DNA from: Candidatus Omnitrophota bacterium
GTDB lineage: Bacteria > Omnitrophota > Gorgyraeia > Gygaellales > Profunditerraquicolaceae
Length of the DNA stretch: 64,000 bases
Assembly: GCA_017992455.1 (NCBI GenBank)
Contig: JAGOOP010000001.1
Coordinates: 123,723-187,722 of the forward strand
Direction: 5' to 3'
The first letter of the stretch is position 1; the number at the start of each line of letters is the position of its first letter. The notes beneath the pieces are model-generated. The model saw only the letters and a list, made by a program, of their open reading frames with translations, was not told where the DNA came from and did not search any database. Below, piece by piece: positions 4,402-27,921 of this stretch. A program made the position numbers and the translations under genes.

Positions 4402-4731
4402 TCATTCCACGCACACCGCCTCTTTCAGGCGCTCGAATCTGGATCCGTTCAAGCCCTTGACCCTGCGCAGGGCGTCGATATCCGCGAACGGGCCGTTGAC
4501 CGAGCGATAGTCGATAATGCGCCGCGCAAGCGTATTGCCGATACCGGGCAGTTCCTTGAGCAATTCCGTATCGGCGGTATTGATATTGACCTTGCCGTAT
4601 GATCGGTCAAAACAGAAAACAGGCCGCAATACGGCCGACTGTTTTCTCGCGTAACCGATGGCAGCGCCTGAAAGGATGACCAGGGCAAGGAACACGGCAG
4701 CGCGGCTTTCCTGTTTGGTGAACGGGATCAT
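4402..4731 (-). CDS. comEA: ComEA helix-hairpin-helix DNA-binding competence protein
   Basis: It has an N-terminal TM segment followed by VNINTADTELLKELPGIGNTLARRIIDYRSVNGPFADIDALRRVKGLNGSRFERLK. Confidence 0.85.
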   Translation of the reverse strand: MIPFTKQESRAAVFLALVILSGAAIGYARKQSAVLRPVFCFDRSYGKVNINTADTELLKELPGIGNTLARRIIDYRSVNGPFADIDALRRVKGLNGSRFERLKEAVCVE

Positions 4732-4780
4732 GGTGAGCCTCCGTATAAATAGACGCTCACCGGCCCGTTATCTCACCGGA

Positions 4781-4966
4781 TTATTTCAATACGATAAGGC
4801 AGAAAAGAAGAATTGCGGCGAGGTTGACGACAACGATGAACAGGGCAGGAGTCCCGACGGGATCGACCACGGCGCGCAGATGGCTGTTGCAGAACATGCA
4901 GGTATCGAGGATCGTCCGGTATCGCGCGCGGCAGTGCGGACAGAACTTCGTTTCATGATCGCCCAT
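4781..4966 (-). CDS. Small zinc-ribbon membrane protein
   Basis: CPHC...CMFC zinc ribbon followed by one hydrophobic helix. It is a paralog in architecture of the neighbouring 5040..5249 gene. Confidence 0.55.
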   Translation of the reverse strand: MGDHETKFCPHCRARYRTILDTCMFCNSHLRAVVDPVGTPALFIVVVNLAAILLFCLIVLK

Positions 4967-5358: not shown

Positions 5359-8300
5359 TTATCCTATGCAGACAAGAATATCTGTCAACTCAGTCCGCGT
5401 CGCAAGCCCCTGCTCCTCTTCCAAGCGCAGGATATTCAGGATACAGCGGGCCGTTTTCTCCAGATGTTCCCCTGCATCAGGCCGGCAAACGCAGACAGCA
5501 ACATATTCCTTCATCCTGGCGTAGGGCATTTCTTTTGCGCGCATCTGCGCCTCGATGGCTTTCCACTCTGCGTCCAAGTCCTGTATTTTTGAATTTCTTG
5601 CCAGCTGTTGCATTTCCAGCATCGCCTGCGGCATCATCACGGGCGCCTGCTGCGGCTGACCGCCGCCGTGCAGCGCCCGGAAATCAATGCCGGCGAGGTC
5701 CTGCTGCTGCGCGTCTATATCCCGGACCTCTCCGCCGTCCAGCTGCACCTTGGGCCGCTGTGTGTCGTTATGAGACGCTTGATTTTTTTCGATCGCATCT
5801 ATTATTTTCGGCACTTGCGGCATGATCTTTTCGTCATATGGTTTCAGCTTATCCAATCCCTTGAGCTGGCGTATTGCATCCTTACCTAATGCCGCGATTA
5901 AAACTTTTATATTTCCTTTAAAATATGCTTCGAAGACAACATCTTCCCCCACTGCTTCAATCACTCTGCAAGCCAAAAATAACGCCGGGGCATAGGAATT
6001 CTTGACGCCGAGGACTTTGCGCTCTAATTCCTGTGCCTGTAGATCCAGGGGATAGTTTGTGTCCGCGGCATCGATCAAGAAGTCTTTTAAACTCGACGTC
6101 GCTATTTTCCAGGCGGCATATTCAGTGACCCCTTCGTCAAGGATCTTGCCAATGCTTCTTAAACCGCGGGAGTTGTGGTGCAAACCTTCATGAAGCAGTA
6201 GCATTGTCAGCAGCGGGCCATCCAATTCAGAAGGAATAACATAGGTTTGGTGGAAGGGAAAGTATCCCGCAGAGTAGACGCCCACATATTTTTCAACGAT
6301 ATGGCCCGGGACAAATTTCACGTCATATGGCACAGGCGGATTCACATGTATTGCATTAAGAAAATCCGTCAACAAGACGTCATTTTCCTCCATCCGCCTT
6401 TGCTGAGACACCGAGGACTCTACGGAATGCCGTATCAGAATTATTTCTTTCTTTATGCTTTTGTTCATGTGCTTCTGTACCATCCTCCAGATAACCTCTT
6501 CGGTGGTCCCGATGTTGAATTTCCTGAGGACCTGCCGGAAATAGCGCTCAAGAACTTCTTCGGTCAGTTGCAATTTGGGATCCTTCCATGTTTCTTTGGA
6601 CGCATCAAATATCTTCCTGATTTTTTCCCGGATATCGTCTGCTTGTTGATCGAACCGAGCGGTCTCATTACTCTTGTCGTCGTCCCGCTGCGCCGCGGGC
6701 CGCTCCGTGCCGCCGTCGCGCTGCACCAGGCATTCCCGCGGCAGCCAGATCGTGACCGTCGTTCCCCCGGCATCTTCATGTTCCACGGAGGAGAACTCCG
6801 CATCCGGCACTCCTGCTTCACGCCATAGAGAGGCCAGCAATCCCGGGCTGCCGGTCTGACTGTCTCCGCGGCAGATGATATTGACATCTATACCGCTCCC
6901 TCCGAAATAGAGATCAAAACCGCGTTCCCTCATTAATTCTTTCCGTCGCGTATCGGCGGCGTACGTTCCCGCGCCATTATCTTTGATCCGTATCTGCAAG
7001 CTCTCCTTCTCATTATGCATAACCCAACCGGCACTCAACTTAAGGATCCCTGTTACGGGAGGCTGTTGTGCGGCGTGCCCGATTTCCTCCATATATTCTC
7101 TGTCATGGAATGTGGCTACGGCGTCATAACTGTTCCGCACAAGCCGAAGGATGAGATTCTGTAAAGATCGCTCGAAAATAGTCATTTCTTTGCCGTTCAC
7201 ATCCAGGAAGTCGCCGATAAACGGCTTTTTAAACTCGAGATCAGCCAGAATGGTATTCTTAACAAGGGAATCAAAGCGCCACGTTACAAATTCACTCTTC
7301 TGTTTGATCATTGAATCCTTATCCATGGGTTCTGAGTGCGAAAGAAACCCAATCGTACGGTCAACGATCTTTACGATCTGCTCCTCTGCACCCCGGTCAG
7401 CTAGCGGTGTATGCTCCGACCCAGTGCCGCCGTCGCGCTGCACCAGGCATTCCCGCGGCAGCCAGACGGTCACCGTCGCTCCCCATCCGTCATCGCCGTA
7501 CGTCAGGCTGTAAAACTGCTCTGTCGCATCTTCATTATCCTGATTCTTGGGTATGGTGACTCCCGCCAAACCCCACAGATATGCCAGGAGCCCTTGAGCG
7601 CCGGTCGCGCTGTCGCCCTTGCTGATCATCCGGGTATCCAGCCCGGCGCCGCCGAAATAGAGATTACTTCCTTCAACGAACGATTTGTGCCTGGTATCGG
7701 CAGCGAACAAGCCTGCGCCGTTATCCGCGATCGTGATCCTGAGGCTTTCTTTCCCGGTCTGCGGATGTGTTGCCCAGTGTGCGGCGAATGTCAATCTGAC
7801 CTTTTCCGGTATCGGCCTATCAGCACATCCGATCTTCCCCATATACTCGCGATCGTGGAATGTCGCAACAGCGTCATATCCGTTGACTGCAAGTTTGCGT
7901 ATAAGCGTCTTGAGCGTTGTCTCGGTTATCGTTGCCATATTTCCCTCGAATCCGTTCCCGTTTCCGAAAAATTCCCGGAACCTGATCGTAAACGGTTCCT
8001 TGTATTTCAGGCCGAAGAGGATGGTGTCTTCCATGACTGAATCGACCAGGGCGAGGAACTTATTGTTTTCTTCGATTGCCCGCTGACCGTTCATTCTCGC
8101 TTCAACAGGAGGCACCGCAAACTCGATGGTTTTTTCGACGATCTTTGCTTCACGGGAAAGAATACGCATCCGATCGGCGATATCCTCTTGGCCGAACGCT
8201 CTGCGCGCGAACCATACGAGCCGGGACTTCACCGCACGCATTCTGGTAAGAAGAGCCGCGGGTCCTAAAAAGAGACCGAATAACGCGCCTCGCGTCGTCA

Positions 8301-15644: not shown

Positions 15645-16043
15645 TTATTGTTTGATGCGCAGAGGAATGAGCGACCGCATGGTCTCGATGCCCCGCAGGA
15701 TGACGTCCATGCCGCAGGGTTTTGAAAGATAATGATCAGCTTCCATGTCGTAGCTTTTGCGCAATGTTTCAAGCTCGGTCTTGGCGCTGATGATGATGAC
15801 CGGGCGCCACCGGTCCGTATATTTCTCCCTGACCTGCTTGAGCACCTCAAAGCCGTTGAGCTTGGGCATGATCAGGTCAAGAAGGATCAGGTCCGGATCG
15901 AATGCGGGGAATTTCGCAAGCGCTTCATCTCCGTCAAAAGCGGTCGCGACATCGAACCCTTCCCGGGTCAAACGGTTTGAAACGACCTGCACGATATCCG
16001 GCTCGTCGTCAACTACCAGTATTTTGAATCCCATGGCCCTCAT
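15645..16043 (-). CDS. Stand-alone response regulator receiver (CheY-like)
   Basis: ILVVDDEPDIV...DLILLDLIMPKLNGFEVLKQVRE...PVIIISAK. Confidence 0.85.
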   Translation of the reverse strand: MRAMGFKILVVDDEPDIVQVVSNRLTREGFDVATAFDGDEALAKFPAFDPDLILLDLIMPKLNGFEVLKQVREKYTDRWRPVIIISAKTELETLRKSYDMEADHYLSKPCGMDVILRGIETMRSLIPLRIKQ

Positions 16044-16900
16044 CCTTTGCGCGCGGCCCGCTGCATCAGCCGCCGCACAATGAGCAGGTTTCGCTCATCT
16101 GCGGTCGCGCTATCCTTTGGCGTTTCCAATACACATGCGGTATGCCCCAGGCGCTTGTCGCTGACAATCCGCCTGAAACCCGCTCTTCCGATATTTCCTT
16201 TACCGATATGCTCATGCCGGTCGCGATGGCTGCCCAGTGTATCGCGCGTATCATTCAGATGAATAAGCGCAAGATTCCTGATGCCGACCGTGCGCTCTAT
16301 TTCATCCATGAGCCGGCTGTATCCTGCTTCCGTTGCCAGGTCGTAACCGGCAGCATACGCATGGCATGTATCAAGGCAGGCGCCGATACGGCCCTTCTGT
16401 TCGATGCGGCTGATGATAGCCGCATGATGTTCAAACGTATAGCCGAGCCAGGAACCGCTGCCGGCCGTGTTTTCCAAAAGGATCTTTACGGGCGAACCCT
16501 CAGTCAGTTCCAGGACCCTGTTCAGCGCGATCGAGATCTTTTTCAGACCCCGCTTCTCGCCGGACAATTTATGGCTGCCCATATGGGTGACCATATATTC
16601 CGCGCCCAGGGCCTTGGCCTCGCGCATATCCTGCACATACGCGGTGATCGAACCGCGGAACAGGCCGTGCTCCGGGGACGCAAGATTGATCAAATACGGG
16701 ATATGGATAAAGACTTTTTCTATATTGCTCGCGGCCCGGCGCCGTTTGAATTCATCGATATCGGCTTTTTTCAGCCTGCTTCTGCGCCACTGCCGGGGGT
16801 CGCGGCTGAATATCTGCATTGCGGTGCAGCCGAGTTTTTCCGCGCGCGTTATCGATTCATAGATCCCGCCGGCTGTTGACACCTGTATCCCGAGCAGCAT
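16040..16900 (-). CDS. nfo: Deoxyribonuclease (endonuclease) IV
   Basis: Motifs across a TIM-barrel AP endonuclease 2 pattern: IHIPYLINLASP, MVTHMGSH, CLDTCHAYAAGYD and HLND. Confidence 0.9.
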   Translation of the reverse strand: MLLGIQVSTAGGIYESITRAEKLGCTAMQIFSRDPRQWRRSRLKKADIDEFKRRRAASNIEKVFIHIPYLINLASPEHGLFRGSITAYVQDMREAKALGAEYMVTHMGSHKLSGEKRGLKKISIALNRVLELTEGSPVKILLENTAGSGSWLGYTFEHHAAIISRIEQKGRIGACLDTCHAYAAGYDLATEAGYSRLMDEIERTVGIRNLALIHLNDTRDTLGSHRDRHEHIGKGNIGRAGFRRIVSDKRLGHTACVLETPKDSATADERNLLIVRRLMQRAARKG

Positions 16901-16918
16901 AGAACCTCATTTTAGCAT

Positions 16919-16974
16919 AAAAAAAAGGCAGGTCCACCAAAAACCTCTCGTCGAGAAATGTGGCGGCCCTGCCT
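16919..16974 (-). terminator. Candidate terminator downstream of tRNA-Ala
   Basis: On the minus strand, the stem AGGCAGG/CCUGCCU (plus an inner CCAC/GUGG pairing) is followed by an 8-U tract. The large loop lowers confidence. Confidence 0.45.
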
Positions 16975-16979
16975 GTATA

Positions 16980-17055
16980 TGGTGGAGCTGAGGAGGATTG
17001 AACTCCTGACCCCTTGCATGCCATGCAAGTGCTCTCCCAGCTGAGCTACAGCCCC
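16980..17055 (-). tRNA. tRNA-Ala (anticodon GGC), CCA encoded
   Basis: The reverse complement GGGGCTGTAGCTCAGCTGGGAGAGCACTTGCATGGCATGCAAGGGGTCAGGAGTTCAATCCTCCTCAGCTCCACCA folds as a cloverleaf. It has the G3:U70 alanine identity pair and the anticodon loop AT-GGC-AT. Confidence 0.9.
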
Positions 17056-17071
17056 GGAATCTATCGATATT

Positions 17072-17479
17072 TCAACCGCTGATATATTTCGACAGCAGCG
17101 ACCACGTCTTGCTGCCCACAACGCCGTCGGGGGTTATGCCGTTGGCCCGCTGGAATTTCATGATGGCCTCTTTTGTCTCAGGCCCGATCTTGCCGTCGAT
17201 CATACCCTTGAACATACCGGCTTTTTTAAGCGCGGTCTGGATCTCGGTGGCATTGGGCATGCGGACTTCCTGCCTGCTCGCTGCCTCAAGCTGTTTGCGC
17301 AGGATGTAATTCTCATCCTTGAGCCGGTTACGCTCTATCTCAAGTGAATTGATCTTGGCCTGGTATTCCTGAACGACCGAAACCGATACGGTCTGCGATG
17401 CCCTGGGCGACTGGGTCGTCGCGCACCCCGATAACGCAAAAATCCCTGCCAATAACGCTCCCAAACATATCCGTCCCAT
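17072..17479 (-). CDS. Lipoprotein with coiled coil and peptidoglycan-binding (PG_binding_1) domain
   Basis: Start MGRICLGALLAGIFALSGC at 17479 behind an AGGAGG Shine-Dalgarno, with lipobox LSGC. The C-terminus is IQTALKKAGMFKGMIDGKIGPETKEAIMKFQRANGITPDGVVGSKTW. Confidence 0.7.
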   Translation of the reverse strand: MGRICLGALLAGIFALSGCATTQSPRASQTVSVSVVQEYQAKINSLEIERNRLKDENYILRKQLEAASRQEVRMPNATEIQTALKKAGMFKGMIDGKIGPETKEAIMKFQRANGITPDGVVGSKTWSLLSKYISG

Positions 17480-17503
17480 ACGAACCTCCTTGAAATTCAT
17501 GGT

Positions 17504-17532
17504 ATTATACCCCAGATTTATAGAATTGACAA
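17504..17532 (-). promoter_or_regulatory. Sigma70-like promoter for the PG-binding lipoprotein gene
   Basis: The minus strand reads TTGTCA-N17-TATAAT (-35 at 17532-17527, -10 at 17509-17504). Confidence 0.5.
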
Positions 17533-17554
17533 ACAAGATTTTAGACTGTATCAT
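17526..17554 (+). promoter_or_regulatory. Sigma70-like promoter for tRNA-Leu
   Basis: TTGACA (17526-17531)-N17-TATCAT (17549-17554), about 18 nt upstream of the mature tRNA 5' end. Its -35 overlaps the divergent promoter's -35. Confidence 0.5.
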
Positions 17555-17571
17555 TTATATACATTCGGAAT

Positions 17572-17657
17572 CGCCGAGGTGGCGAAATGGCAGACGCGTC
17601 GGTCTCAAAAACCGATAGGGTTACACCTATGAGGGTTCAACTCCCTCCCTCGGCACC
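17572..17657 (+). tRNA. tRNA-Leu (anticodon CAA), long variable arm, CCA encoded
   Basis: The acceptor GCCGAGG pairs with CCTCGGC, the anticodon loop is CT-CAA-AA, the variable arm is TAGGGTTACACCTAT and the T arm is GAGGG-TTCAACT-CCCTC. The last 7 nt, GGCACCA, are the att core of the adjacent element. Confidence 0.9.
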
Positions 17658-17763
17658 AAATTGAACGGTTGACCCCAAAGGCTCTGTCCCTCGGGACAGA
17701 GCGCCAAAATTCGCGTTTTCGGCGAAAATTCGGCGGGGCAAATTCAAGTATAGGTGAACTTCG
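17651..17763. repeat. Inverted repeat A, left copy (113 bp)
   Basis: It is the reverse complement of 19275-19387, with one mismatch (17748 against 19290). It starts with the tRNA 3' end GGCACCA and contains the internal palindrome CTCTGTCCCTCGGGACAGAG. Confidence 0.95.
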
Positions 17764-17869
17764 TAAGGAGTTCACCTATTTCTTTTTCGGCGTCCTCAGT
17801 CAAAATTCTTTTTTTCTCCCTCATGAGGAATCCGCTGGAAACCCGAAAGGCGCAAACCTGGAGGTCGCC

Positions 17870-19477
17870 ATGAAATGCGCCGTGTACGTGCGGGTTTCCA
17901 CCGAAGAACAAGCCAAAGCGGGTTACTCTCTCGCCGCCCAGACAGATAAGATAATTGAGTTTATACGCAACAAAGGCTGGACGCACACCGAAATTTATTG
18001 CGATGACGGCTACTCTGCCGCGACGCGGCGGCGGCCAGCACTTGAGCGTTTGCTGGCCGATTCAACGGCGCGGCAGTTTGACGCCGTCCTGGTGTATAAG
18101 ATCGACCGCTTCTCGCGCAACCTCAAAGACCTGCTCGATATTGTCGAACAATTGAGCAAGAACGCCGTCGGCTTCAAGTCGATAACCGAATTGATCGATA
18201 CCACCACCCCTGAAGGCCGCCTCATGTTCCACCAGTTCGGCTCATTCGCGCAATATGAGCGCGAACTGATCGCCCAACGCGTAATGCTTGGACTGCGTAA
18301 AAGATTCCAGTCCGGCATGTGGGTAAGCGGCGTAGCTCCCTTCGGCTACAAGCAAAAGAACGGAAAACTTGAACTTGTTGATAAAGAGGCGGCCGTCGTC
18401 AAGACCATGTTCGACCTCTACACCCAAAAGAACCTCGGCGTGATAAATATCGCCCGTTACTTAAATAACGCGGGACTACGGACACGGGCCGGAAATATGT
18501 GGAAGCCGACGGTCATTCACCACATTATCACAAATCCGACTTACACAGGTTGCATAATACGCGGCGGCGAGAGAGTAACCGGGGCTCACAAACCCATTGT
18601 TAAAGAGGAAACATTTAACCGTATAAAAGAGCTCCTTCCTACTCGCAAAGCGAAAACCCGCGTGTTTGTGAGCCCCAACCTCTTCACCGGGTTCATATTC
18701 TGCGGCTGCGGCGCTCCCATGCACATGATTTATCCAGGACTGCCAAATAAGATTCGTTATAAATACTATGCCTGCTCCCGGCGCATAGCCTATAAAGACT
18801 GCAAAACCGAATATCTACGCCAGGACATCTTAGAAACCAGTGTTTTAGATCAGCTAAACAAGCTTGCCACTGATAAACCAAGACTGACCGCGATAATAAC
18901 CCTTCTTAAAAACCAGAACAACAAGCTTTTACCTGGCTTGCGCCGCAGCCGCCTGGAGCTGTCGCAAAATATCAGCGGTCTGACACAGCAAAAAAACGGG
19001 TTATTAAAATGGATGAGCGCAAAAGAAGCAAAACCTTATACGCTGAACGTACTCAATGAGAAATTCGAGAAGATCGAGCTTGAACTAAACGAATTAACGC
19101 ACAAGTTGTGGCAGACCGACGAGGAATTGAGTAAGAGGTCGCGCTTTGGCTTGTCTTCGGAGAAAGTCGCCTTGTGGCTTAAGCAAGTGATCAAGACTTA
19201 CGCGGATTCCGACCGGCAGGAGAAAAAAAGAATTTTGTCTGAGGTTTTGGAAAAGATCACAGTAAAATCAAAAGACGAAGTTCACCTATTCTTGAATTTG
19301 CCCCGCCGAATTTTCGCCGAAAACGCGAATTTTGGCGCTCTGTCCCGAGGGACAGAGCCTTTGGGGTCAACCGTTCAATTTGGTGCCCTTCGTCTGAAGA
19401 ATACCCAAAAGGCTGTTTGTCAATTAACCTACTCGATTCAATCCTACTACCAAAAGAAAGATCAGTCAAGAGAATAG
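17870..19477 (+). CDS. Large serine recombinase (resolvase domain, recombinase domain, zinc ribbon, coiled coil)
   Basis: The ATG at 17870 follows a GGAGG Shine-Dalgarno. The protein reads MKCAVYVRVSTEEQAKAGYSL...VLVYKIDRFSRN..., then CGCGAPMH...YYACSRRIAYKDCK as the zinc ribbon, then a long coiled coil. The last 68 codons lie inside the inverted repeats. The TTG-started N-terminal extension in the ORF track (17669) is repeat DNA. Confidence 0.9.
   Translation: MKCAVYVRVSTEEQAKAGYSLAAQTDKIIEFIRNKGWTHTEIYCDDGYSAATRRRPALERLLADSTARQFDAVLVYKIDRFSRNLKDLLDIVEQLSKNAVGFKSITELIDTTTPEGRLMFHQFGSFAQYERELIAQRVMLGLRKRFQSGMWVSGVAPFGYKQKNGKLELVDKEAAVVKTMFDLYTQKNLGVINIARYLNNAGLRTRAGNMWKPTVIHHIITNPTYTGCIIRGGERVTGAHKPIVKEETFNRIKELLPTRKAKTRVFVSPNLFTGFIFCGCGAPMHMIYPGLPNKIRYKYYACSRRIAYKDCKTEYLRQDILETSVLDQLNKLATDKPRLTAIITLLKNQNNKLLPGLRRSRLELSQNISGLTQQKNGLLKWMSAKEAKPYTLNVLNEKFEKIELELNELTHKLWQTDEELSKRSRFGLSSEKVALWLKQVIKTYADSDRQEKKRILSEVLEKITVKSKDEVHLFLNLPRRIFAENANFGALSRGTEPLGSTVQFGALRLKNTQKAVCQLTYSIQSYYQKKDQSRE
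19275..19387. repeat. Inverted repeat A, right copy (113 bp)
   Basis: It is the reverse complement of 17651-17763 (112/113) and lies inside the 3' end of the recombinase gene. Confidence 0.95.
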
Positions 19478-19779
19478 GCCCCGCCCGCTTGGCCGCGGGC
19501 TTCGTTGTGCCGGTGGCGTCGCTTCGCCCCGCGTGACGCGGGGCTGCGCTGGACGGCCGCTTAGGTCAGCGGCCTGGAGCTAATGCAGTCCGGGCTCGGC
19601 TCGGCTGCGGCTGGGGCTGGGTGGGGGCAGCCCCAGCCGCGCGTCCTCTCGCACCGCTGTTAAATCCCCCAGGTCGTACGCTGTGCCGCAATTAACAAAT
19701 AGAAAAACTCGGCGGTGCGGCACGCCGAGCCTCTTGGTGGATAGGTTTGAAAAGTCGCTAAGTAAACCTACACCCCGAT
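19381..19779. repeat. Inverted repeat B, left copy (399 bp)
   Basis: It is the exact reverse complement of 22528-22926, checked block by block by eye. It begins with TGGTGCC, which is shared with repeat A. Confidence 0.95.
19702..19729 (-). terminator. Rho-independent terminator inside repeat B, facing out of the cargo segment (mirror copy on the + strand at 22578-22605)
   Basis: The minus strand reads CUCGGCG-UGCCGCAC-CGCCGAG followed by UUUUUC, about 100 nt downstream of the last cargo gene. Confidence 0.6.
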
Positions 19780-19830
19780 AACACTGTTATTTTTTTAAGG
19801 GGGCACCTTTTAAGGATGCCCCCTTTCGAA

Positions 19831-20262
19831 CTATCTGTATTTTACGAATTTGGTATTCCCAAGCTCGTAATAATAGTACCAAACTTCCGAAACATTAACG
19901 TTATGTTTTGATATGAGACGCAATGCTTCGTCACAATACTTGCTTGGTACAATCAACAGAAACTTGATACCTAGGCTTCCATAATCTTTCCATTGTTCCG
20001 CTTCTGAATCAGAAACAGACTCAGCGGTTTCAATTTCTTCAATTATGACAGCCGTACCTCTAGCCGAACCTAATGAATCAGGCAGCCATACTACAACATC
20101 AGGATAACGCGGATTAGACGCAGGTCCTACAAATTGATTCTTCTCCCCACCAGGATTAGTGCTCACTTTGTAACCCTTGCGTTGCATTTCTCCATAAGTC
20201 GCAGCTGACGCACTGACTATTCTATCATGCTCGGATTCTTCCAGGGTTGTACGAATAGCCAT
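19831..20262 (-). CDS. Hypothetical 143-aa alpha/beta protein; possible PD-(D/E)xK-like fold (weak)
   Basis: Start MAIRTTLEE at 20262, after a strong AGGAGGT Shine-Dalgarno. YPDVVVW...AVIIEEIET resembles a nuclease core without the canonical Lys. An RLISKH (Rx4H) string lies near the C-terminus. I recognise no family for it. Confidence 0.5.
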   Translation of the reverse strand: MAIRTTLEESEHDRIVSASAATYGEMQRKGYKVSTNPGGEKNQFVGPASNPRYPDVVVWLPDSLGSARGTAVIIEEIETAESVSDSEAEQWKDYGSLGIKFLLIVPSKYCDEALRLISKHNVNVSEVWYYYYELGNTKFVKYR

Positions 20263-20457
20263 TATTTTTTGGTATACCTCCTTCCTAAAATTTCTGTGGG
20301 GAAGTTGCCAAAAGTATTGACTTTTCACCTCCTTAGGATATACTAATGACAACGGCACTAACACAGATATTTAGTGTCCCAAGGGTGGATAAAAGGCCCC
20401 CAAGCCAAACTTTATCCGCCCTTTTTCTTTTATTCAAAGACCATCAGTAGTTAGTTA

Positions 20458-21096
20458 TCAAACCAAGAATTTATTTAGCTCATTTACTAATATATGTACG
20501 GTCGTAGAAGGTCTTCTGACGCTAGCGGGATGAGTAGCTATGTAACCAGATAGAAGTCGCGAGGCATTTCTTATTCCATCCCCCTGTTTGTTTAGAATAA
20601 GCTGGTAGATTTCAGTACTGTTTTTCTCGTAAGGCTTACCTAAAAGTGCGCTTAACCTGGTAATATATTCCGATCGTTTTGAGGCAGTTTGATGATATTG
20701 GAAGTGTAACAAGTACCATAACTCAAAACACTCATTAGAATAAGCCACTTTGATATCATGTTTTTTTGCCAACGCAATAGCCTTTTCAAAGTTATCATCA
20801 GGATTATCATCTTTATCAAATACACACCAAATTTGATCAAACTTTATACCGTATGTTGCAGCATCTTTCTTGTACTTTATAGTCTTTTCTACAAGAGACA
20901 CTGTATTATCTCCCGGCCCAAAGATTTCGTCTTTTACTTGAGAGGAAGTTAACCGAAAACTGTTAAAATAATTAGGCTCAGTTTTCTCCCCTTCACAGAC
21001 AATTAAGAAAGTTTCTCTAACTGTCCTGACGGCAACTTGCCTTTTAGCGATTCTTGACTGTTTTCTTTTCCAAAACGCGGCGTCCGGTTCTTTCAT
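20458..21096 (-). CDS. RloB-like (Toprim-related) protein, AbiLii-type
   Basis: The N-terminal FLIVCEGEKTEPNYF motif is characteristic of RloB-like proteins, followed by WCVFDKDD. Its start is in an ATGA overlap with the upstream ATPase stop. Confidence 0.75.
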   Translation of the reverse strand: MKEPDAAFWKRKQSRIAKRQVAVRTVRETFLIVCEGEKTEPNYFNSFRLTSSQVKDEIFGPGDNTVSLVEKTIKYKKDAATYGIKFDQIWCVFDKDDNPDDNFEKAIALAKKHDIKVAYSNECFELWYLLHFQYHQTASKRSEYITRLSALLGKPYEKNSTEIYQLILNKQGDGIRNASRLLSGYIATHPASVRRPSTTVHILVNELNKFLV

Positions 21097-22346
21097 TTTC
21101 TAAAAAGCGAGTTGTCTCCTCTAATAAAAGGAATAGCTCCATATTTGCCTGCAATGTAGTCTTTCTCAAAAGAAGCATCATTTCTAACTTTATATTCTGC
21201 CAAAGAATATAAATCAGTCGCCCCATATTTATTTTTTTCTGTTAGCCATATTTGATCTCTGCGGAAAATGCTTCTATTAAAAAGATTGGTATTGTGAGAA
21301 GCAAAAACTAATTGAGCATTCTTGGGGTTATTCTCAAGAGAATTAAATAATGTTATAAGAAATTTTATTAAAATAGGGTGGAGTTTCGCGTCAAGCTCAT
21401 CAACTACTATTATGCTCCCATTCTTAAGAGTGTCTAGAAAAGGCCCGGAAAGAGCAAAGAATTTCTTAGTGCCTTCGGATTCCTCTATCCCCAAATCAAA
21501 TTTAACCGAGGATATTGGCTTGTTTTCGTTATCAAATTTTGAGTGCAAAGTTTGGATGCTAACATTGAAAACTTGTCCCTCTGGGCCAAATTTTGCTTTT
21601 TCCTTTTCAGACATATCCTCATACTTTAACTGCGTTTCCTCTAAATTAATATCCTCGATTCCTAAATCGGCTTCTTTGAGAAATCTGAGAACATTTTTCC
21701 TGAATTCCTCATCCTTGATTCTTTCAAGAGTGAACGGAACAAGCCTTACGTCTATCAGCGTAGATATAATATGGAGGTTTTTCCCAAACCAATTTAAGAT
21801 CTCTTTTGAAATCTCGCCATTCCATTGAGCAACAACCGATAAGAAGAGCGCATTAGGTCTAGTTATTTTCTCCTTTCCTTTGCCTTCTTTAAAATGCGTT
21901 CCGATTTGAAAGTTGTCCCCTTCTCTTACGAAAAGTTGAGTTTCTTTTCTAATCGGAACGCTAAAAAGCCATTCTCGTACTACCTTTTCTCTATCAACCT
22001 GAAAACCATATCTATACCTTGTTTCTTTATGAATAAAAACTACTTCGAAAAGAGATGGTTTATCATCTGTTTCAGCACTCAATTTAAAGTTTGTGACATT
22101 AATTCTTCCCTTATCTTGGGTAGAAGTTAAAACAAATTTTTTCATAAACCTCATTGCTCTAATCAAATTACTTTTCCCACTTGCGTTGGCTCCATAAATA
22201 ACTGCACTCTTCAATAACCTTAATTTATTGTTAGCTATAAATAGATTTGTATCCGCATGTTCTTTCTTAGCGGAAGCAACCATGCTGAAAGTTACAATAT
22301 CTTTAAAAGATAAGAAATTCCCTACACTAAATTCAATTATCATCAT
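21093..22346 (-). CDS. AAA15/AAA21-type ABC ATPase (AbiLi / AriA / OLD-ATPase class)
   Basis: Walker A is GANASGKSN, the signature-like motif is ESEGTKKF, Walker B is IIVVDELDAKLHP and the H-loop is FASHN. The N-terminus MIIEFSVGNFLSFKD is typical of the family. Confidence 0.85.
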   Translation of the reverse strand: MMIIEFSVGNFLSFKDIVTFSMVASAKKEHADTNLFIANNKLRLLKSAVIYGANASGKSNLIRAMRFMKKFVLTSTQDKGRINVTNFKLSAETDDKPSLFEVVFIHKETRYRYGFQVDREKVVREWLFSVPIRKETQLFVREGDNFQIGTHFKEGKGKEKITRPNALFLSVVAQWNGEISKEILNWFGKNLHIISTLIDVRLVPFTLERIKDEEFRKNVLRFLKEADLGIEDINLEETQLKYEDMSEKEKAKFGPEGQVFNVSIQTLHSKFDNENKPISSVKFDLGIEESEGTKKFFALSGPFLDTLKNGSIIVVDELDAKLHPILIKFLITLFNSLENNPKNAQLVFASHNTNLFNRSIFRRDQIWLTEKNKYGATDLYSLAEYKVRNDASFEKDYIAGKYGAIPFIRGDNSLFRK

Positions 22347-22426
22347 TATCTCCTGGGTTACAGTATCTATTAGGCATATTTTTGGACAAAGTCCACAAAT
22401 TACAATCCTATTTTATCCACAAAAGA

Positions 22427-22454
22427 AGTATAACTCAAAAATATAAAATGTCAA
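22427..22454 (-). promoter_or_regulatory. Sigma70-like promoter of the cargo operon
   Basis: The minus strand reads TTGACA (22454-22449)-N16-TATACT (22432-22427). Downstream lies a TGGAC-TTT-GTCCA palindrome (22383-22395) that could be an operator. Confidence 0.55.
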
Positions 22455-22527
22455 GCTTTTTTGTGATATTTACTCAAAAACTAGTTTTATTATTGTAGCA
22501 GCGCCATAATCGAAGTGGTTTCTAGGA

Positions 22528-22926
22528 ATCGGGGTGTAGGTTTACTTAGCGACTTTTCAAACCTATCCACCAAGAGGCTCGGCGTGCCGCACCGCCGAGT
22601 TTTTCTATTTGTTAATTGCGGCACAGCGTACGACCTGGGGGATTTAACAGCGGTGCGAGAGGACGCGCGGCTGGGGCTGCCCCCACCCAGCCCCAGCCGC
22701 AGCCGAGCCGAGCCCGGACTGCATTAGCTCCAGGCCGCTGACCTAAGCGGCCGTCCAGCGCAGCCCCGCGTCACGCGGGGCGAAGCGACGCCACCGGCAC
22801 AACGAAGCCCGCGGCCAAGCGGGCGGGGCCTATTCTCTTGACTGATCTTTCTTTTGGTAGTAGGATTGAATCGAGTAGGTTAATTGACAAACAGCCTTTT
22901 GGGTATTCTTCAGACGAAGGGCACCA
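22528..22926. repeat. Inverted repeat B, right copy (399 bp)
   Basis: It is the exact reverse complement of 19381-19779 and ends in GGGCACCA at the right boundary of the element. Confidence 0.95.
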
Positions 22927-22950
22927 GACTGATAGCCAAAAACATAGAAA

Positions 22951-22987
22951 ACATAGGGACGGTTCTCTTCGAGAACCGTCCCTATGT
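22951..22987. terminator. Bidirectional terminator in the chromosomal flank right of the element
   Basis: A perfect 17-bp stem ACATAGGGACGGTTCTC / GAGAACCGTCCCTATGT with a 3-nt loop and T-rich tracts on both sides. It lies downstream of the minus-strand gene 23023..24072. Confidence 0.7.
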
Positions 22988-22990
22988 TTT

Positions 22991-23016
22991 AAATAATTCT
23001 GACCCCGTTTTTAGCC
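22991..23016. repeat. REP-like element, single copy (AAATAATTCTGACCCCGTTTTTAGCC)
   Basis: The same 26-mer recurs at 24296-24321 and 60846-60871. Its reverse complement recurs at 24265-24290 and 60792-60817, and a partial copy lies at 27990-28011. Confidence 0.85.
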
Positions 23017-23022
23017 TTTTTA

Positions 23023-24072
23023 TCAGTCGTTGATGACGATTGTGCCGTTCTCGCACGAAATACTGTTGATCCGCATGAGATTGAGGCCGTTGGCGGAATT
23101 GGGCACCAGTTCATAAACCACGCCGTCAAGGCTCAGGACAAGCTCGCTCAACTGCTGCGCACTGGGTTCAGAAACCAGGGGCTTTCCGGTCACGATGTCG
23201 AATTCCACGGTCCCGTATTCTCCGTCATAATCGGTGCCTCCCATGCGCAGGGCAGTCCCTCCCTCAAGGACCTCGACGCTCGACAGGTCTCCGGTCCCCT
23301 CATCAAAAAGGGTCAGCGGGAAAATAGTCAATGCATCGGAGGAGGTCGTCACGAGCCCGAACCAGGCTGAATTGTCTGCCCTGACCGCCATCGCATTGGG
23401 CTCAGCCGCCATCACAACGCCTGAAAACTCGCGGTCTCCTGCGGTGAAAGATATTTCCTGGCCCACATACTGCTGGCTGCCGGACCTGACCATGGCGAGG
23501 ACTGCCGGATCAACCCCGCTATAGGTCCATTCCCCCGCGTTATTCGTGTTGATCTGAGGCGCTGTTGCCGGCACGTATCCTGTTGCTGGAATGACCGGCG
23601 AGACTGCCGGGCCCGGAGCAGGAGAAACAGGCGCTGCGGGAGCCGGAGAAACAGGCTGGGCCGATGTTGCAGGAGCTGTTTGCCCCGGCATCTGAAATAC
23701 CTGCGTCTGAACGTGCGCGGTCAGGACCGGCGTTACCATCGCCGCCTGGCGAATGGATATCGCGGGCGCGACTGCGGTCGTGTCCACTGCGTGGAACGTC
23801 TGGATCGCGGGCCTGAACGTATAGGTGTCCGCGAGGGCCGCCATGCGGTCCTGCAGGAAAGTTTCAGAGGTCTGGAACGAAAACTGCGAGAGATCCGGCT
23901 TCTGCCACTGCCCCGCCGTTTCCGAAGACGCATTCATCGTGTGTGACGGAGATTCATACACATAAGAACTGAAATCATAGGCATAGGCTGATGCTGCAAA
24001 AAAAATGCCTGCTGCGCACGCGGCAAAGAACAAAACCGCTGCTGCAGAAGAGGATTTCATCTGACTGCACAT
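23023..24072 (-). CDS. Secreted protein of unknown function with Pro/Ala-rich linker
   Basis: It has a signal peptide (AAVLFFAACAAGIFFAASAYA), a PVSPAPAAPVSPAPGPAVSPVIP linker and a C-terminal region that looks beta-rich. I recognise no family. Confidence 0.6.
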   Translation of the reverse strand: MCSQMKSSSAAAVLFFAACAAGIFFAASAYAYDFSSYVYESPSHTMNASSETAGQWQKPDLSQFSFQTSETFLQDRMAALADTYTFRPAIQTFHAVDTTAVAPAISIRQAAMVTPVLTAHVQTQVFQMPGQTAPATSAQPVSPAPAAPVSPAPGPAVSPVIPATGYVPATAPQINTNNAGEWTYSGVDPAVLAMVRSGSQQYVGQEISFTAGDREFSGVVMAAEPNAMAVRADNSAWFGLVTTSSDALTIFPLTLFDEGTGDLSSVEVLEGGTALRMGGTDYDGEYGTVEFDIVTGKPLVSEPSAQQLSELVLSLDGVVYELVPNSANGLNLMRINSISCENGTIVIND

Positions 24073-24112
24073 GGAACACTCCTTTGTTTGATTTGATCGC
24101 CGGCGGTACGCG

Positions 24113-24162
24113 ATAAAAAACCACGATCCTTAAGATAGAATGAATTCTATCAAGAACCGTGG
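24113..24162 (-). terminator. Long hairpin plus U-tract in the leader of gene 23023..24072
   Basis: On the minus strand, CCACGGUUCUUGAUAGAAU...AUUCUAUCUUAAGGAUCGUGG is followed by UUUUUU. The stem arms are nearly identical to those of the hairpin at 4967-5008. Confidence 0.5.
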
Positions 24163-24264
24163 CTGATTCATGTCTGCGCTGAATGTGCGATATACTTTAT
24201 AAAGATAGCACATGCCAGACGTTTTTTCAAGGTCGGGAATAAAAATATTTTTGAATTACACCAA

Positions 24265-24321
24265 GGGCTAAAAACGGGGTCAGAATTATTTATTAAATAA
24301 TTCTGACCCCGTTTTTAGCCC
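24265..24321. repeat. REP-like element, head-to-head pair forming a 57-bp palindrome
   Basis: GGGCTAAAAACGGGGTCAGAATTATTTATTAAATAATTCTGACCCCGTTTTTAGCCC, immediately after the stop codon of the SGNH gene. Confidence 0.9.
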
Positions 24322-24990
24322 TTATTCTTTTTTGAATTTGGTCAGCAGGGCGTTCTGGTTCAAATATGGCAGGATGGCGCGATAGACCCGCTGCGCGATA
24401 AGCCGGTAGCCGTGCTCATTGGGATGAAAATAATCGCTTTTCATGCTGGCTTTGTCGAAAATGCCGTTGAGCAGGTTCGGAATATAGATCGTCCCGTATT
24501 GCCGGCTGAGCGACTGGAAAATCGGGCCGTAGTCAGACATGAGATGCATATTGCTGACATCGACCAACGCCACGATCGCTCCCTGCTTCTGGCATTGCTG
24601 TATGATCGATTCGATATTGCGCCGCGTATCTTCGAGGGCTATTTTGGTAAGGAAATCGTTTGCTCCGAACTCGACAACTACCAGAAGCGGTTCCCGGTCA
24701 AGGACGTCGGGCCTGATCCGCTTCAAAGCTCCTTCGGAGGTATCTCCTTCAATGCCGGCATTCACGACCGGGATGGACGTCAGTTTGGAAAGATACGCCG
24801 GATAGGAAGATTTCGGGCCTGCGCCGAACCCCTGGGTCAGGGAATCGCCGAAACATACGATATATTTACCCGAAGAATCTATGTTCACGATATCGCTGCG
24901 CATGCACCCTGATATGCACAGGATACCGGCGATGCCCGGGACGATCAAACTCCTGGATAAGATACGGCCGTAATGAATAACCATTTCCAT
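24322..24990 (-). CDS. SGNH/GDSL hydrolase lipoprotein (TesA/arylesterase-like)
   Basis: Lipobox CISGC. The SGNH blocks are FGDSLTQG, VEFGANDF and DYFHPNEHGY. The start is uncertain (24990 or 25020). Confidence 0.8.
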   Translation of the reverse strand: MEMVIHYGRILSRSLIVPGIAGILCISGCMRSDIVNIDSSGKYIVCFGDSLTQGFGAGPKSSYPAYLSKLTSIPVVNAGIEGDTSEGALKRIRPDVLDREPLLVVVEFGANDFLTKIALEDTRRNIESIIQQCQKQGAIVALVDVSNMHLMSDYGPIFQSLSRQYGTIYIPNLLNGIFDKASMKSDYFHPNEHGYRLIAQRVYRAILPYLNQNALLTKFKKE

Positions 24991-24997
24991 AATTCTC

Positions 24998-26068
24998 TCA
25001 GGCGCAGACGCGCCGCTCATGCCGTGCGCGCAACTGGCCGCAGGCGGCTTCGATATCTTCTCCCCGCGGCTGCCTGACCGTCACGGGAACGCCGCTTTTG
25101 GCCACCTCTTGCCTGAACGCCGCCGTCTCGCTCCTGCCCGGAGCCGCAAGGCCCGGATCAGCCTGGGCGTTAAGCGGGATCAGGTTGACCTTGCAATCGA
25201 ACCCACGCAATATTGTACCTAATTTTCTCGCGTCTGCCAATGAAGAATTGATCCCGCGGATGAGCACGTATTCGAACGTCACCTGTCTGCCTGTCTTCTG
25301 CCGGTATGCGCGGCAGGCAGCGATCAGGTCTTTCAAAGGATACCGTTTGTTGACCGGCATGAGCGCGGACCTGGTTCTCTCATCGGCCGCGTGCAGGGAA
25401 ACGGACAATTCGATCTGCAGCCCTTCGCCGGCAAGCCGCCGTATCTGCGGGATCAGCCCGTTGGTGGATATGGTGATCCTTCGCGCTCCGATGTTCAATC
25501 CGTGTTTCGCGTTCAACATGCGGACCGCGCGCAGGACATTATCATAATTATCGAGCGGCTCGCCGCTGCCCATAAAAACCACATGGGTCAACGATTGCGC
25601 CGCCGAGCGATGCCTTAAATACAGGGCCTCTTCGATCATCTCGCCCGCGGAAAGATCCCTCTGAAAACCGAATGCGCCGCTCACGCAGAAGCGGCATGCG
25701 AATTTGCATCCGACCTGGCTGGAGATGCAGCCGGTGACCCTGCCTGAAGCGGGGATGCTCACCGCTTCGATCATACCGCCGTCAACAAGCTTAAAAAGGA
25801 ATTTTTCCGTCCCGTCCACGGACCTGCGCGTTTCCTCGATCCGCATGGTCCCCGCAGAACATTCTTCGATCAGCCGCCGGCGCAGGCCGCGCGGCAGATC
25901 GGACATGGCATCGAAATCAAAAATGCCGCGCTCGTATATCCAGGTGAATATCTGTTTTGCGTGAAAGCGCGGCAATCCCCACGAAACGATCACTGATGCA
26001 AGCTGTTCCGCATCAAGGTCCATGATATCGCGTGTCATCGCGATTTCCGCAATTTTCTGCTCAGGCAT
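24998..26068 (-). CDS. rlmN: 23S rRNA/tRNA adenine-C2 methyltransferase RlmN (radical SAM)
   Basis: CKFACRFCVSG radical SAM cluster motif, then VFMGSGEPLDNYDNV and LSVSLHA. It looks RlmN-like along its full length. Confidence 0.9.
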   Translation of the reverse strand: MPEQKIAEIAMTRDIMDLDAEQLASVIVSWGLPRFHAKQIFTWIYERGIFDFDAMSDLPRGLRRRLIEECSAGTMRIEETRRSVDGTEKFLFKLVDGGMIEAVSIPASGRVTGCISSQVGCKFACRFCVSGAFGFQRDLSAGEMIEEALYLRHRSAAQSLTHVVFMGSGEPLDNYDNVLRAVRMLNAKHGLNIGARRITISTNGLIPQIRRLAGEGLQIELSVSLHAADERTRSALMPVNKRYPLKDLIAACRAYRQKTGRQVTFEYVLIRGINSSLADARKLGTILRGFDCKVNLIPLNAQADPGLAAPGRSETAAFRQEVAKSGVPVTVRQPRGEDIEAACGQLRARHERRVCA

Positions 26069-27092: not shown

Positions 27093-27921
27093 ATCCTTTC
27101 GCCAGGAGATATCCTTTGGCCCGTTCCGTATGCCGGTACCGGTTTACGATATCCCAGAAATCGGTTCCGTGGCCGCGGCATACAAGATGCGCCAGCTCGT
27201 GCACGAGCACATAATCCCGCACCCATGCGGGCATGAACGCGACGTGATGCGCAATGCGGATCTTCCGGCGCTCGTAATCGCAGCAGCCGAATTGAGCGTT
27301 CTGGCCCGTTACATATTCTATAGACTCAAAGCGCAGTTTGCCAGAGAAATATTGTTTGTTCAGTTCGAAAGCGCGCCTGGCGAGGGCCCGGTCGCTATTG
27401 AGATCTTTTTTCAAAAGCTTCTTTTCGATCCGACCCCTGAGATCATTGATGACAGCCTGAAGATCCCCGTCAGCGATGCGGGCGGGAACCCGCACATACA
27501 ACGTATCCTTGACCATGCGGGCGCTTGCGCTGCGCGAACGCCTTCGGGTGCGGACCACTTTTATCTCTTTGATGCGGCTCTGCCGCAGGGAGGGATAATG
27601 GAAAGCCAGCCATACGGTATTCTCATGCGGTATTGTCCATTCGACCCGGTGGCTGCATCCTGCAGGGATCGTCATATGATCGCCGGGGATAAGGGTCATT
27701 TCCGCCGGGCCGTCGAAGAACTTCAATCGCGCCGAGCCGGATAGTAACACGACCCATTCGTCCGTATCCTGTGAAAGCCACTGCCCCGGCGGCGTTGACT
27801 GGCCGCGCGACACAATGCGCTCGAGCCTGACGCCGGGACCGGCAATGACCGTCTCGGAAAACTCATCGGAATGGCAGCGAGCGGGATCCGTGAATATATT
27901 GTGCTTTTCAGGGATTGCCAT
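27061..27921 (-). CDS. Fusion of a cupin domain and a YgjP/DUF45-type HExxH metal-dependent hydrolase
   Basis: The N-terminal ~110 aa form a cupin (WVVLLSGSARLKF...GDHMTIPAGCSHRVEW). The C-terminus has VLVHELAHLVCRGHGTDFW. Confidence 0.65.
   Translation of the reverse strand: MAIPEKHNIFTDPARCHSDEFSETVIAGPGVRLERIVSRGQSTPPGQWLSQDTDEWVVLLSGSARLKFFDGPAEMTLIPGDHMTIPAGCSHRVEWTIPHENTVWLAFHYPSLRQSRIKEIKVVRTRRRSRSASARMVKDTLYVRVPARIADGDLQAVINDLRGRIEKKLLKKDLNSDRALARRAFELNKQYFSGKLRFESIEYVTGQNAQFGCCDYERRKIRIAHHVAFMPAWVRDYVLVHELAHLVCRGHGTDFWDIVNRYRHTERAKGYLLAKGYELNEEAEQG

Follow-up and report, generated by a model that had tools for sequence, protein, structure and literature searches.

An integrated element at a tRNA-Leu gene of an Omnitrophota bacterium, best described as a large serine recombinase island with an inverted duplicate of its in-gene attP

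Based on the repeat structure of a 64,000-nt stretch of DNA from a Candidatus Omnitrophota bacterium (contig JAGOOP010000001.1, positions 123,723 to 187,722 of the forward strand; the whole stretch is called the window here and its first letter is position 1), we propose that positions 17652-22926 hold an integrated island of 5,268 bp, which owes its mobility to a large serine recombinase (LSR) and sits at the 3' end of a tRNA-Leu(CAA) gene. The region of the island that carries its attachment site (attP, the partner of the bacterial site attB) appears to be present as an inverted duplicate of 505 bp, one copy lying within the recombinase gene. We put the probability of this reading at roughly 0.6. 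The element is best described as an LSR integrative island with an inverted-duplicated, in-gene attP, an organization for which full-text literature searches gave no description and of which an earlier, preliminary description of this DNA had likewise known no bacterial serine-recombinase example; its mechanism beyond integration is what we infer.

Nested repeats and an attP-like site within the recombinase gene

The features that carry the argument are the following, with the basis of each call in brackets.

17573-17658, plus strand: tRNA-Leu(CAA) (ARAGORN; Rfam tRNA, 60 bits), the 3' end of which is the bacterial half of the left junction, attL
17652-17658, plus strand: first copy of the core GGCACCA, the presumed crossover region in attL (sequence, site table)
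17652-17764, plus strand: arm A, an inverted copy of the 3' coding part of the LSR gene, degenerate to ~17819 (repeat search)
17870-19477, plus strand: LSR gene, 535 aa (Pfam, AlphaFold2 (AF2), Foldseek, homologue alignment)
19275-19387, plus strand: arm A', coding, the partner of A (repeat search)
19355-19415, plus strand: intact internal attP-like site in the LSR gene, CCTTTGGGG-14-TGGTGCC-16-CCCAAAAGG, with core' at 19381-19387 and the dyad kept in 15 loci
19381-19779, plus strand: arm Y, comprising the core, the last 30 LSR codons, a GC-rich structured motif and a terminator facing the cargo
22528-22926, plus strand: arm Y', an exact inverted copy of Y; it makes up the right junction, attR, together with the core at 22920-22926
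22927-22990, no strand: chromosomal flank B', holding the terminator (22948-22990, minus strand) of a downstream gene of 349 aa

A repeat search over positions 16000-25000, with the exact extents read from the sequence, gave two nested pairs of arms. The inner inverted repeat pairs 17652-17764 with 19275-19387 (113 nt, 112/113 or 99% identical, 1,510 nt between the arms) and extends in degenerate form to ~168 nt at 89% identity (17794-17819 against 19219-19244). The outer one was detected as 405 nt, 19375-19779 against 22528-22932, with 2,748 nt between the arms, and is exact over 19381-19779 and 22528-22926 (399/399). Repeats of such length and identity cannot have arisen by chance. Both pairs of arms have in common the 7-bp core GGCACCA, the last 7 nt of tRNA-Leu(CAA), which stands in direct orientation at 17652-17658 and 22920-22926 and inverted (TGGTGCC) at 19381-19387. 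The island is thus bounded by a direct repeat of the core, the left copy of which completes the tRNA gene. From core to core it measures 5,268 bp (505 + 1510 + 505 + 2748), the 505-bp repeat unit itself being 106 + 7 + 392, and about 67 recombinase codons (19275-19474) lie inside the repeat. The preliminary description had already recognized the 505-bp unit, the 399/399 match and the shared core as the complement of the tRNA 3' end, all of which stand on reading the sequence, including the recurrence of the core at 22920-22926. Its arm 17651-17763 had the right 112/113 match and lay one base off; its recombinase segment of 1,511 bp and circle of 5,269 bp were each one too long, and the overlap of gene and repeat, which is real, had been counted as 68 codons.

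The LSR combines Resolvase, Recombinase and Zn_ribbon_recom domains (Pfam) with a coiled coil. Its N-terminal resolvase catalytic domain (PF00239, E = 1.2e-41), with the active-site serine, spans residues 4-150, PF07508 and PF13408 are matched as well, and the N-terminus, MKCAVYVRVSTEEQ, is invariant across homologues. In the AF2 model (mean predicted local distance difference test score, pLDDT, 79) long helices occupy residues 336-424, and Foldseek relates the model with probability 1.00 to the complexes of the SPbeta, Bxb1 and phiC31 integrases. Among the NCBIfam profiles CcrB/CcrC of SCCmec and XisF score highest, all far under the family cut-offs, and the Mpi invertase profile reaches 36 bits against a cut-off of 272; with its 535 aa the protein is not a small invertase of the kind that has ~190 aa, a C-terminal helix-turn-helix (HTH) and an enhancer. 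A protein search returned many LSR homologues from Omnitrophota, with 50-72% identity at 100% query coverage, and exact-protein look-ups for the LSR and the cargo protein AbiLi of the window matched no record. Judged from its sequence, the window enzyme is an integrase-type LSR, predicted to catalyse recombination of attP with attB.

The C-terminal tail is of particular interest for the position of the recombination site. Across the homologue alignment it is conserved as ...LNLPxxISxLxxGxEPLGSTVQFGALRLxNTQKAxCQxxYSLQDYYNNN and its codons run from A' through the core (FGA) into the first part of Y; the distal part of the DNA coding for it shows third-position changes among homologues. The tail that spans the core is, on this comparison, conserved as protein, and the repeated DNA is real coding sequence. 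Residues 481-515, whose codons lie in the outer part of A' and in the core, are predicted to be disordered, and residues 517-528, a conserved terminal element, form a short strand and a helix with moderate confidence in the AF2 model. Since the tail is conserved as protein and the disordered stretch spans the core, the recombination site falls inside the gene, where a linker is encoded. This position of attP in the coding sequence of the recombinase itself is, in turn, the reason for the inverted repeat.

The attP-like site at the 3' end of the LSR gene is an imperfect dyad, CCTTTTGGG-16-GGCACCA-14-CCCCAAAGG. In 15 loci a first site consists of a tRNA 3' end followed by the core and A, and a second site, on the other strand, consists of the conserved half-site CAGCCTTTyGGGTATTCyTCAkACGAAG followed by the identical core and A. 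When the two are joined, the sequence obtained is a dyad-symmetric site as expected of an LSR attP. The block A'-core'-Y of the window is an exact inverted copy of the joint that excision by attL x attR would produce, and the outer junctions, tRNA-core-A and Y'-core-flank, are exactly what attL and attR should be after the whole unit had integrated in one event. The geometry of excision put forward in the preliminary description, a circle of 505 + 1510 + 505 + 2748 bp whose new joint matches the internal block, is borne out in this way, and dyad symmetry and site table agree with its suggestion that each repeat carries an attP-like site, one of which was consumed by integration.

We therefore propose a mechanism in which attP resides at the 3' end of the LSR gene, in the code for a disordered linker and ahead of a short conserved C-terminal element. 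One of the two attP copies would have recombined with the tRNA gene and been split into a left part, tRNA-core-A, and a right part, Y'-core-flank, and the other would have stayed intact in the gene as A'-core'-Y. The nested inverted repeats, one around the recombinase segment and one around the cargo (AbiL and an open reading frame, ORF, of no recognized family), would be the outcome. Because the copy outside the gene recombined with the tRNA, the LSR gene stays whole; its reading frame survives integration, which it does not in relatives with a single attP. Excision at the direct cores would release a circle with two 505-bp inverted repeats, each with an attP and either of them usable in the next integration. 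Gene conversion or recombination, to which the concerted evolution of the arms points, would keep these near-identical, and the integrated island would retain a live attP able to recombine with other tRNA genes, as locus L096 described below suggests.

Related loci and mobility

Homologue loci were fetched from JGI, ENA and NCBI assemblies and scanned for tRNAs and repeats; they are referred to by L numbers where they have to be told apart. In about 20 independent loci of Omnitrophota type the LSR gene is flanked by an inverted repeat of 110-165 nt, the left end of which abuts the 3' end of a tRNA gene for Leu-CAA, Leu-CAG, Leu-GAG, Phe-GAA, Glu-TTC or Met. Together with a second island in L004, at tRNA-Ala, five tRNA species are targeted. 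An outer repeat around variable cargo accompanies the inner one in L012 (243 nt, 97%), L018, L023, L093 and L004. Within a locus the arms are 86-100% identical, against a median of 67% between loci; they are imperfect in L012 (86-90% and 97%), L019 (95.5%), L092 (87%) and L004 (96% and 76%). Among 130 more distantly related LSR loci, taken as a control from phages and from other phyla, none has a flanking repeat of at least 40 nt, and on the viral collection the LSR profile found ordinary phage LSRs only (<=36% identity), which served as a negative control; a degenerate pattern of the att sites had 0 matches in the viral collection.

Since the arms are near-identical within loci that differ by 33% from one another, gene conversion between them seems to be frequent, and conversion between inverted repeats would usually be accompanied by inversion.

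Several of the related loci are decayed or cut short. In L021 (2465-3598) the LSR gene has an internal deletion, leaving 805 bp between the arms, and Y is truncated; in L008 (11485-11537) the core and the conserved tail are missing together with 5 nt at the outer end of the arm, so that the encoded protein stops at ...GSTLY*. Contigs from many independent assemblies (L001, L002, L003, L008-L011, L015, L019, L092 and L102) break off within 30-50 bp past the stop codon of the LSR gene or close to the core, a contig of 116 kb among them; such ends agree with a repeat or a strain-variable cargo that begins at this point. On MHGH01000021.1, an Omnitrophica contig of 99.9 kb that holds L097 and L099, both ends stop inside an outward-reading LSR gene, which would fit two islands or else a single recombinase segment that connects the two contig ends in the assembly graph. 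A separate inverted repeat of 161 nt (96%) lies downstream of the LSR module in L013, at 4689-4849 and 7131-7290; one arm falls at the start of a ROK glucokinase gene and the other inside a polyphosphate kinase gene.

Relatives with a single attP show what the duplicate spares the gene. A Spirochaetota clade (~42% identity) and L103 (52%) have no flanking repeat, L103 being assigned to this type as a locus without the upstream arm. Their LSR gene runs into the reverse complement of a tRNA, which encodes its last residues (e.g., ...APRGIEPLFEE*), and this fusion is, as far as the sequence tells, the product expected of a single in-gene attP after integration.

The second island of L004 (4651-9665, opposite strand) is a complete nested one at tRNA-Ala, and its LSR (LSR2) is 24% identical to that of the window. 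Its order is flank, TGGTGG, Y2, 2.4-kb cargo (NYN, HTH, small ORFs), Y2', CCACCA, A2, LSR2, A2', TGGTGG and the reverse complement of tRNA-Ala. The imperfect arms (96% and 76%) make this assembly unambiguous. L019 carries the same LSR2 module; the second LSR of L004 is uncalled in the source annotation, though its ORF is open. Members of the window family have a whole LSR gene that points away from the tRNA, whereas the 3' end of LSR2 in L004 and L019 is fused to the reverse complement of the tRNA. In L004 the gene copy of attP was used; the LSR therefore reads into the tRNA, and the intact copy lies upstream. Because this island used the other copy, either copy can serve as attP, and integration in either orientation, one of the roles considered in the preliminary description, finds support here in its two isomers. 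Junctions as expected of a flipped recombinase segment or a circle occur in L017, L095 and L023, on assembly paths that are ambiguous because the arms are identical and exceed the k-mer length of the assembler; in L023, where the arms are identical, a Y'-core-A junction is followed by the LSR.

In L096 (9725-11575) the recombinase unit stands alone between tRNA-Leu(CAA) and a convergent tRNA-Leu(CAG), with an ORF that ends in ...YGAEGGS*. Its arms come from different subfamilies and are only 80% identical, and the locus is therefore unambiguous. The arrangement suggests a chromosomal inversion or a recombinant formed by way of the internal attP; in the simplest case the internal attP would have recombined with the attB of another tRNA gene, and the chromosome in between would have been inverted.

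Mobility is indicated by the comparison of distinct hosts. The recombinase module (window 17573-19520) is 93.7% identical at the DNA level to L001 and L092 (Omnitrophica UBA6233); the flanking proteins are only 52% (endonuclease IV) and 78% (leucyl-tRNA synthetase) identical, and there is no DNA match in the flanks. Given this contrast between module and flanks, a recent transfer has brought the module into the same tRNA-Leu(CAA) site of distinct hosts. The range of five tRNA species and the low G+C of the cargo (36%, against 54% for the window) likewise mark a mobile element.

Cargo, expression signals and structured motif

Besides the LSR the island encodes three proteins. These genes, the structured motif and the expression signals, the latter from consensus scans for promoters and terminators, are listed here.

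17526-17554: promoter-like site before the tRNA gene
17750-17779, plus strand: terminator-like hairpin exactly where arm A ends on its inner side; it separates the tRNA gene from the LSR start codon
19476-19652, plus strand: GC-rich motif with four hairpins; inverted copy at 22655-22831, minus strand
19703-19734, minus strand: terminator-like hairpin facing the cargo; mirror copy at 22573-22604, plus strand
19831-20364, minus strand: cargo ORF of 177 aa downstream of AbiLii, no family recognized
20458-21096, minus strand: AbiLii (RloB-like), second AbiL gene (Pfam RloB, 2e-47; PADLOC AbiLii, 6e-32)
21093-22346, minus strand: AbiLi (AAA_21 ATPase), first AbiL gene (PADLOC AbiLi, 3.7e-105; Pfam)
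22454-22427: promoter-like site for AbiL, inside the cargo

AbiLi and AbiLii overlap by 4 nt on the same strand and together make up an AbiL anti-phage system. The 177-aa ORF, which has no match in Pfam, PADLOC, NCBIfam or the PDB sequences, could belong to the AbiL locus as its third component or be a gene of its own. Between islands the cargo is wholly different, while A, Y and the GC-rich motif are conserved.

The motif (~177-180 nt, 77% G+C) follows the LSR stop codon. An RNAalifold analysis of the relatives' alignment gives 15 base pairs with compensatory changes, and a covariance model scores 110 bits for each window copy and matches only beside these LSR modules, the LSR2 islands included; the motif is also present in L004, L006, L012, L013, L016, L018, L019 and L023. 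It matched no Rfam family. As most compensatory changes are G:C to C:G, they decide neither its strand nor whether it acts as RNA or DNA, and it could be an RNA of the 3' untranslated region or a DNA structure. A supposed third copy of the Y motif at window position 27741 was rejected as a chance 10-mer.

An Rfam search of positions 16900-24400 at E <= 1 returned just two tRNAs and chance miRNA-like matches on palindromes. The latter are terminator-like elements downstream of the island (22937-23019 and 24263-24323): a perfect palindrome of 30 + 30 nt at 24263-24323 (AAGGGCTAAAAACGGGGTCAGAATTATTTA) has a related copy at 22983-23019, beside the hairpin at 22948-22990.

Alternative readings and known systems

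Several points weigh against the proposed island. No excised circle, empty attB or attP junction of the window element was recovered: a blastn search with flank B' and the cargo against all fetched loci gave no match, either to an empty site or to the same cargo elsewhere, and the metagenome, genome and viral collections yielded no circular contig. The complete right junction is present only in the window and in L004, other contigs stopping inside Y or Y'; L006 and L013 have no Y' within 3-10 kb, and a search that allowed up to 8 mismatches to the reverse-complemented half-site found no right junction in L005, L006 or L013. The right side is truncated in L008 and L021, so that not every member of the family has the full architecture. 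The cargo of the family's islands includes no conserved recombination directionality factor, and the crossover dinucleotide would fall somewhere within GGCAC.

A bolder reading, which we entertain only tentatively and hold to be rather doubtful, concerns the tail of the recombinase. The swap of the recombinase tail, between the 30 residues of its own and 4 residues encoded by the tRNA, would be a state switch that sets the direction of integration or excision and replaces the directionality factor, with the internal attP in addition inverting or reshuffling chromosome segments between tRNA genes. The state of the tail would depend on the attP copy used or on a flip of the recombinase segment between the identical arms. 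If true, this would be a bacterial serine-recombinase counterpart of the flip-flop design of the yeast 2-micron plasmid.

The same exchange of tails would follow from an in-situ switch of several inversions, comparable to shufflons or to Gin and Cin, in which an invertase acts on the three cores and flips both its own segment and the cargo within an element that is no longer mobile. We consider this improbable. All three cores do stand at the ends of inverted repeats, and the recombinase segment is seen in both orientations relative to the tRNA when the window family is set against the LSR2 islands of L004 and L019. L008 and L095, identical over 9,969 nt of chromosome (100%), have it assembled in opposite orientations beside tRNA-Leu(GAG); however, their arms of 153 nt are identical and exceed the k of 141, so that the difference may be a flip or a choice of the assembler. 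A full-length LSR of the integrase type that includes a coiled coil is not a small invertase of the Hin/Gin kind, and the presence of the same module at five tRNA species and its 93.7% identity between distant hosts speak for a mobile unit. An inversion would also have no obvious regulatory effect, as the cargo has its own promoter-like site and both arms carry terminators that face it.

It is likewise unlikely that two separate modules adjoin each other, a recombinase unit (A-LSR-A', then Y) and an exchangeable cargo cassette between Y and Y', each moving independently. The complete replacement of the cargo between islands that share A, Y and the GC-rich motif would fit such modules, as would L096 with its recombinase unit alone between convergent tRNA-Leu genes, and L006 and L013 with a recombinase unit and Y and no Y' in reach. 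Yet serine recombinases excise between direct sites and each module would be bounded by inverted ones, the outer junctions in the window are exactly attL and attR of one whole-unit integration, and loci without Y' may be larger, cut by the contig end or decayed, as the internal deletion of L021 illustrates.

An assembly or amplification artefact, i.e., an inverted chimera or a mis-traversed graph, had been named in advance as what would overturn the interpretation. Short reads cannot orient perfect repeats longer than k, and many related contigs break 30-50 bp past the recombinase stop or inside Y'. Nevertheless, the layout is found in about 20 assemblies from different pipelines (JGI, ENA, NCBI), and none of the 130 control loci has the repeat. 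Because several loci have imperfect arms (L012, L019, L092 and L004, and 112/113 in the window) and the repeated part codes for a conserved protein, the artefact is excluded for the family and very unlikely for the window.

Highly improbable, finally, is an autonomous 2-micron-like replicon with Futcher-type amplification, since the four genes of the element (LSR, AbiLi, AbiLii and the 177-aa ORF) include no replication initiator, partition gene or relaxase, the cargo is not conserved among family members, no circular contig was found in the metagenome, genome and viral collections and LSRs normally do not recombine attP with attP, even if the predicted circle has two unique segments and two 505-bp inverted repeats, each with a recombination site and a conserved GC-rich hairpin cluster that could in principle be an origin. 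The likeness to the 2-micron plasmid that the preliminary description had drawn consequently holds for the geometry of the predicted circle and is unsupported for function, with no replication gene and a serine enzyme in place of one of FLP type, and the amplification it had considered finds neither a replication gene nor an origin among the four genes. A single-stranded DNA dumbbell that rebuilds attP, as in the CTX phage, was rejected as well, because a serine recombinase cuts both strands; it would leave hairpin-capped chromosome ends and not the observed structure.

With the integrated LSR island as the preferred reading, the closest known systems are the large serine integrases. The enzymes of phiC31, Bxb1, SPbeta (SprA) and TP901-1 resemble the window LSR in domain set, fold and the use of a short core with little identity between partner sites, and such integrases share with it a dyad attP of ~55 bp, insertion at the 3' end of a conserved gene and a small cargo island. 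For phiC31, Bxb1 and SPbeta integrases attP x attP is normally not recombined. Unlike in these systems, attP lies here in the recombinase ORF, the region is inverted and duplicated to 505 bp, an intact attP remains after integration and there is no conserved directionality-factor gene. An attP within the element's own integrase gene occurs in SSV1 and pTN3 of archaea and in intP of Myxococcus phage Mx8, all with tyrosine recombinases. There, integration alters or splits the 3' end of the integrase gene, as in the single-attP relatives described here, and we know of none of this type in which a second, inverted attP rescues the gene.

Long inverted repeats with recombination sites are found in other systems, too. 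The yeast 2-micron plasmid has FLP and its FRT sites in inverted repeats of 599 bp, and, like the plastid inverted-repeat genomes, shares with the predicted circle the two unique segments between long identical inverted repeats and arms that evolve in concert; unlike the 2-micron plasmid, the island has a serine enzyme, is found integrated and encodes no replicon functions, so that flip-flop and amplification would be conjectural for it. The G segment of Mu with Gin, the C segment of P1 with Cin (repeats of ~0.6 kb) and the shufflons also combine inverted repeats that have crossover sites at their ends with an adjacent serine recombinase gene. Those are, however, small invertases with a Fis-dependent enhancer and an inversion that switches expression, whereas the island has an LSR of the integrase type, a tRNA end among its sites and expression signals that belong to the cargo itself. 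Tycheposons and other cargo islands that target tRNA genes are similar in being small and in carrying cargo or defence functions, and a minority use an LSR; tycheposons mostly have tyrosine recombinases, and the parts of their description available to us mention neither nested inverted repeats nor an in-gene attP.

In the standard picture an LSR has one attP beside its gene and a separate directionality factor, and LSRs have become major tools for the insertion of large DNA. The family described here, spread over a poorly known phylum and targeting at least five tRNA species, departs from this picture by an attP in the ORF, a second inverted copy that co-evolves with it, an attP that persists after integration and the lack of a conserved accessory gene. 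It illustrates how very small islands of ~5 kb spread defence systems such as AbiL, and it offers a way in which inversions between tRNA genes could come about. Should directionality or orientation be governed by the swap of tails or by the two copies of attP, this would represent a new compact regulatory principle and a source of new orthogonal pairs of integrases and att sites.

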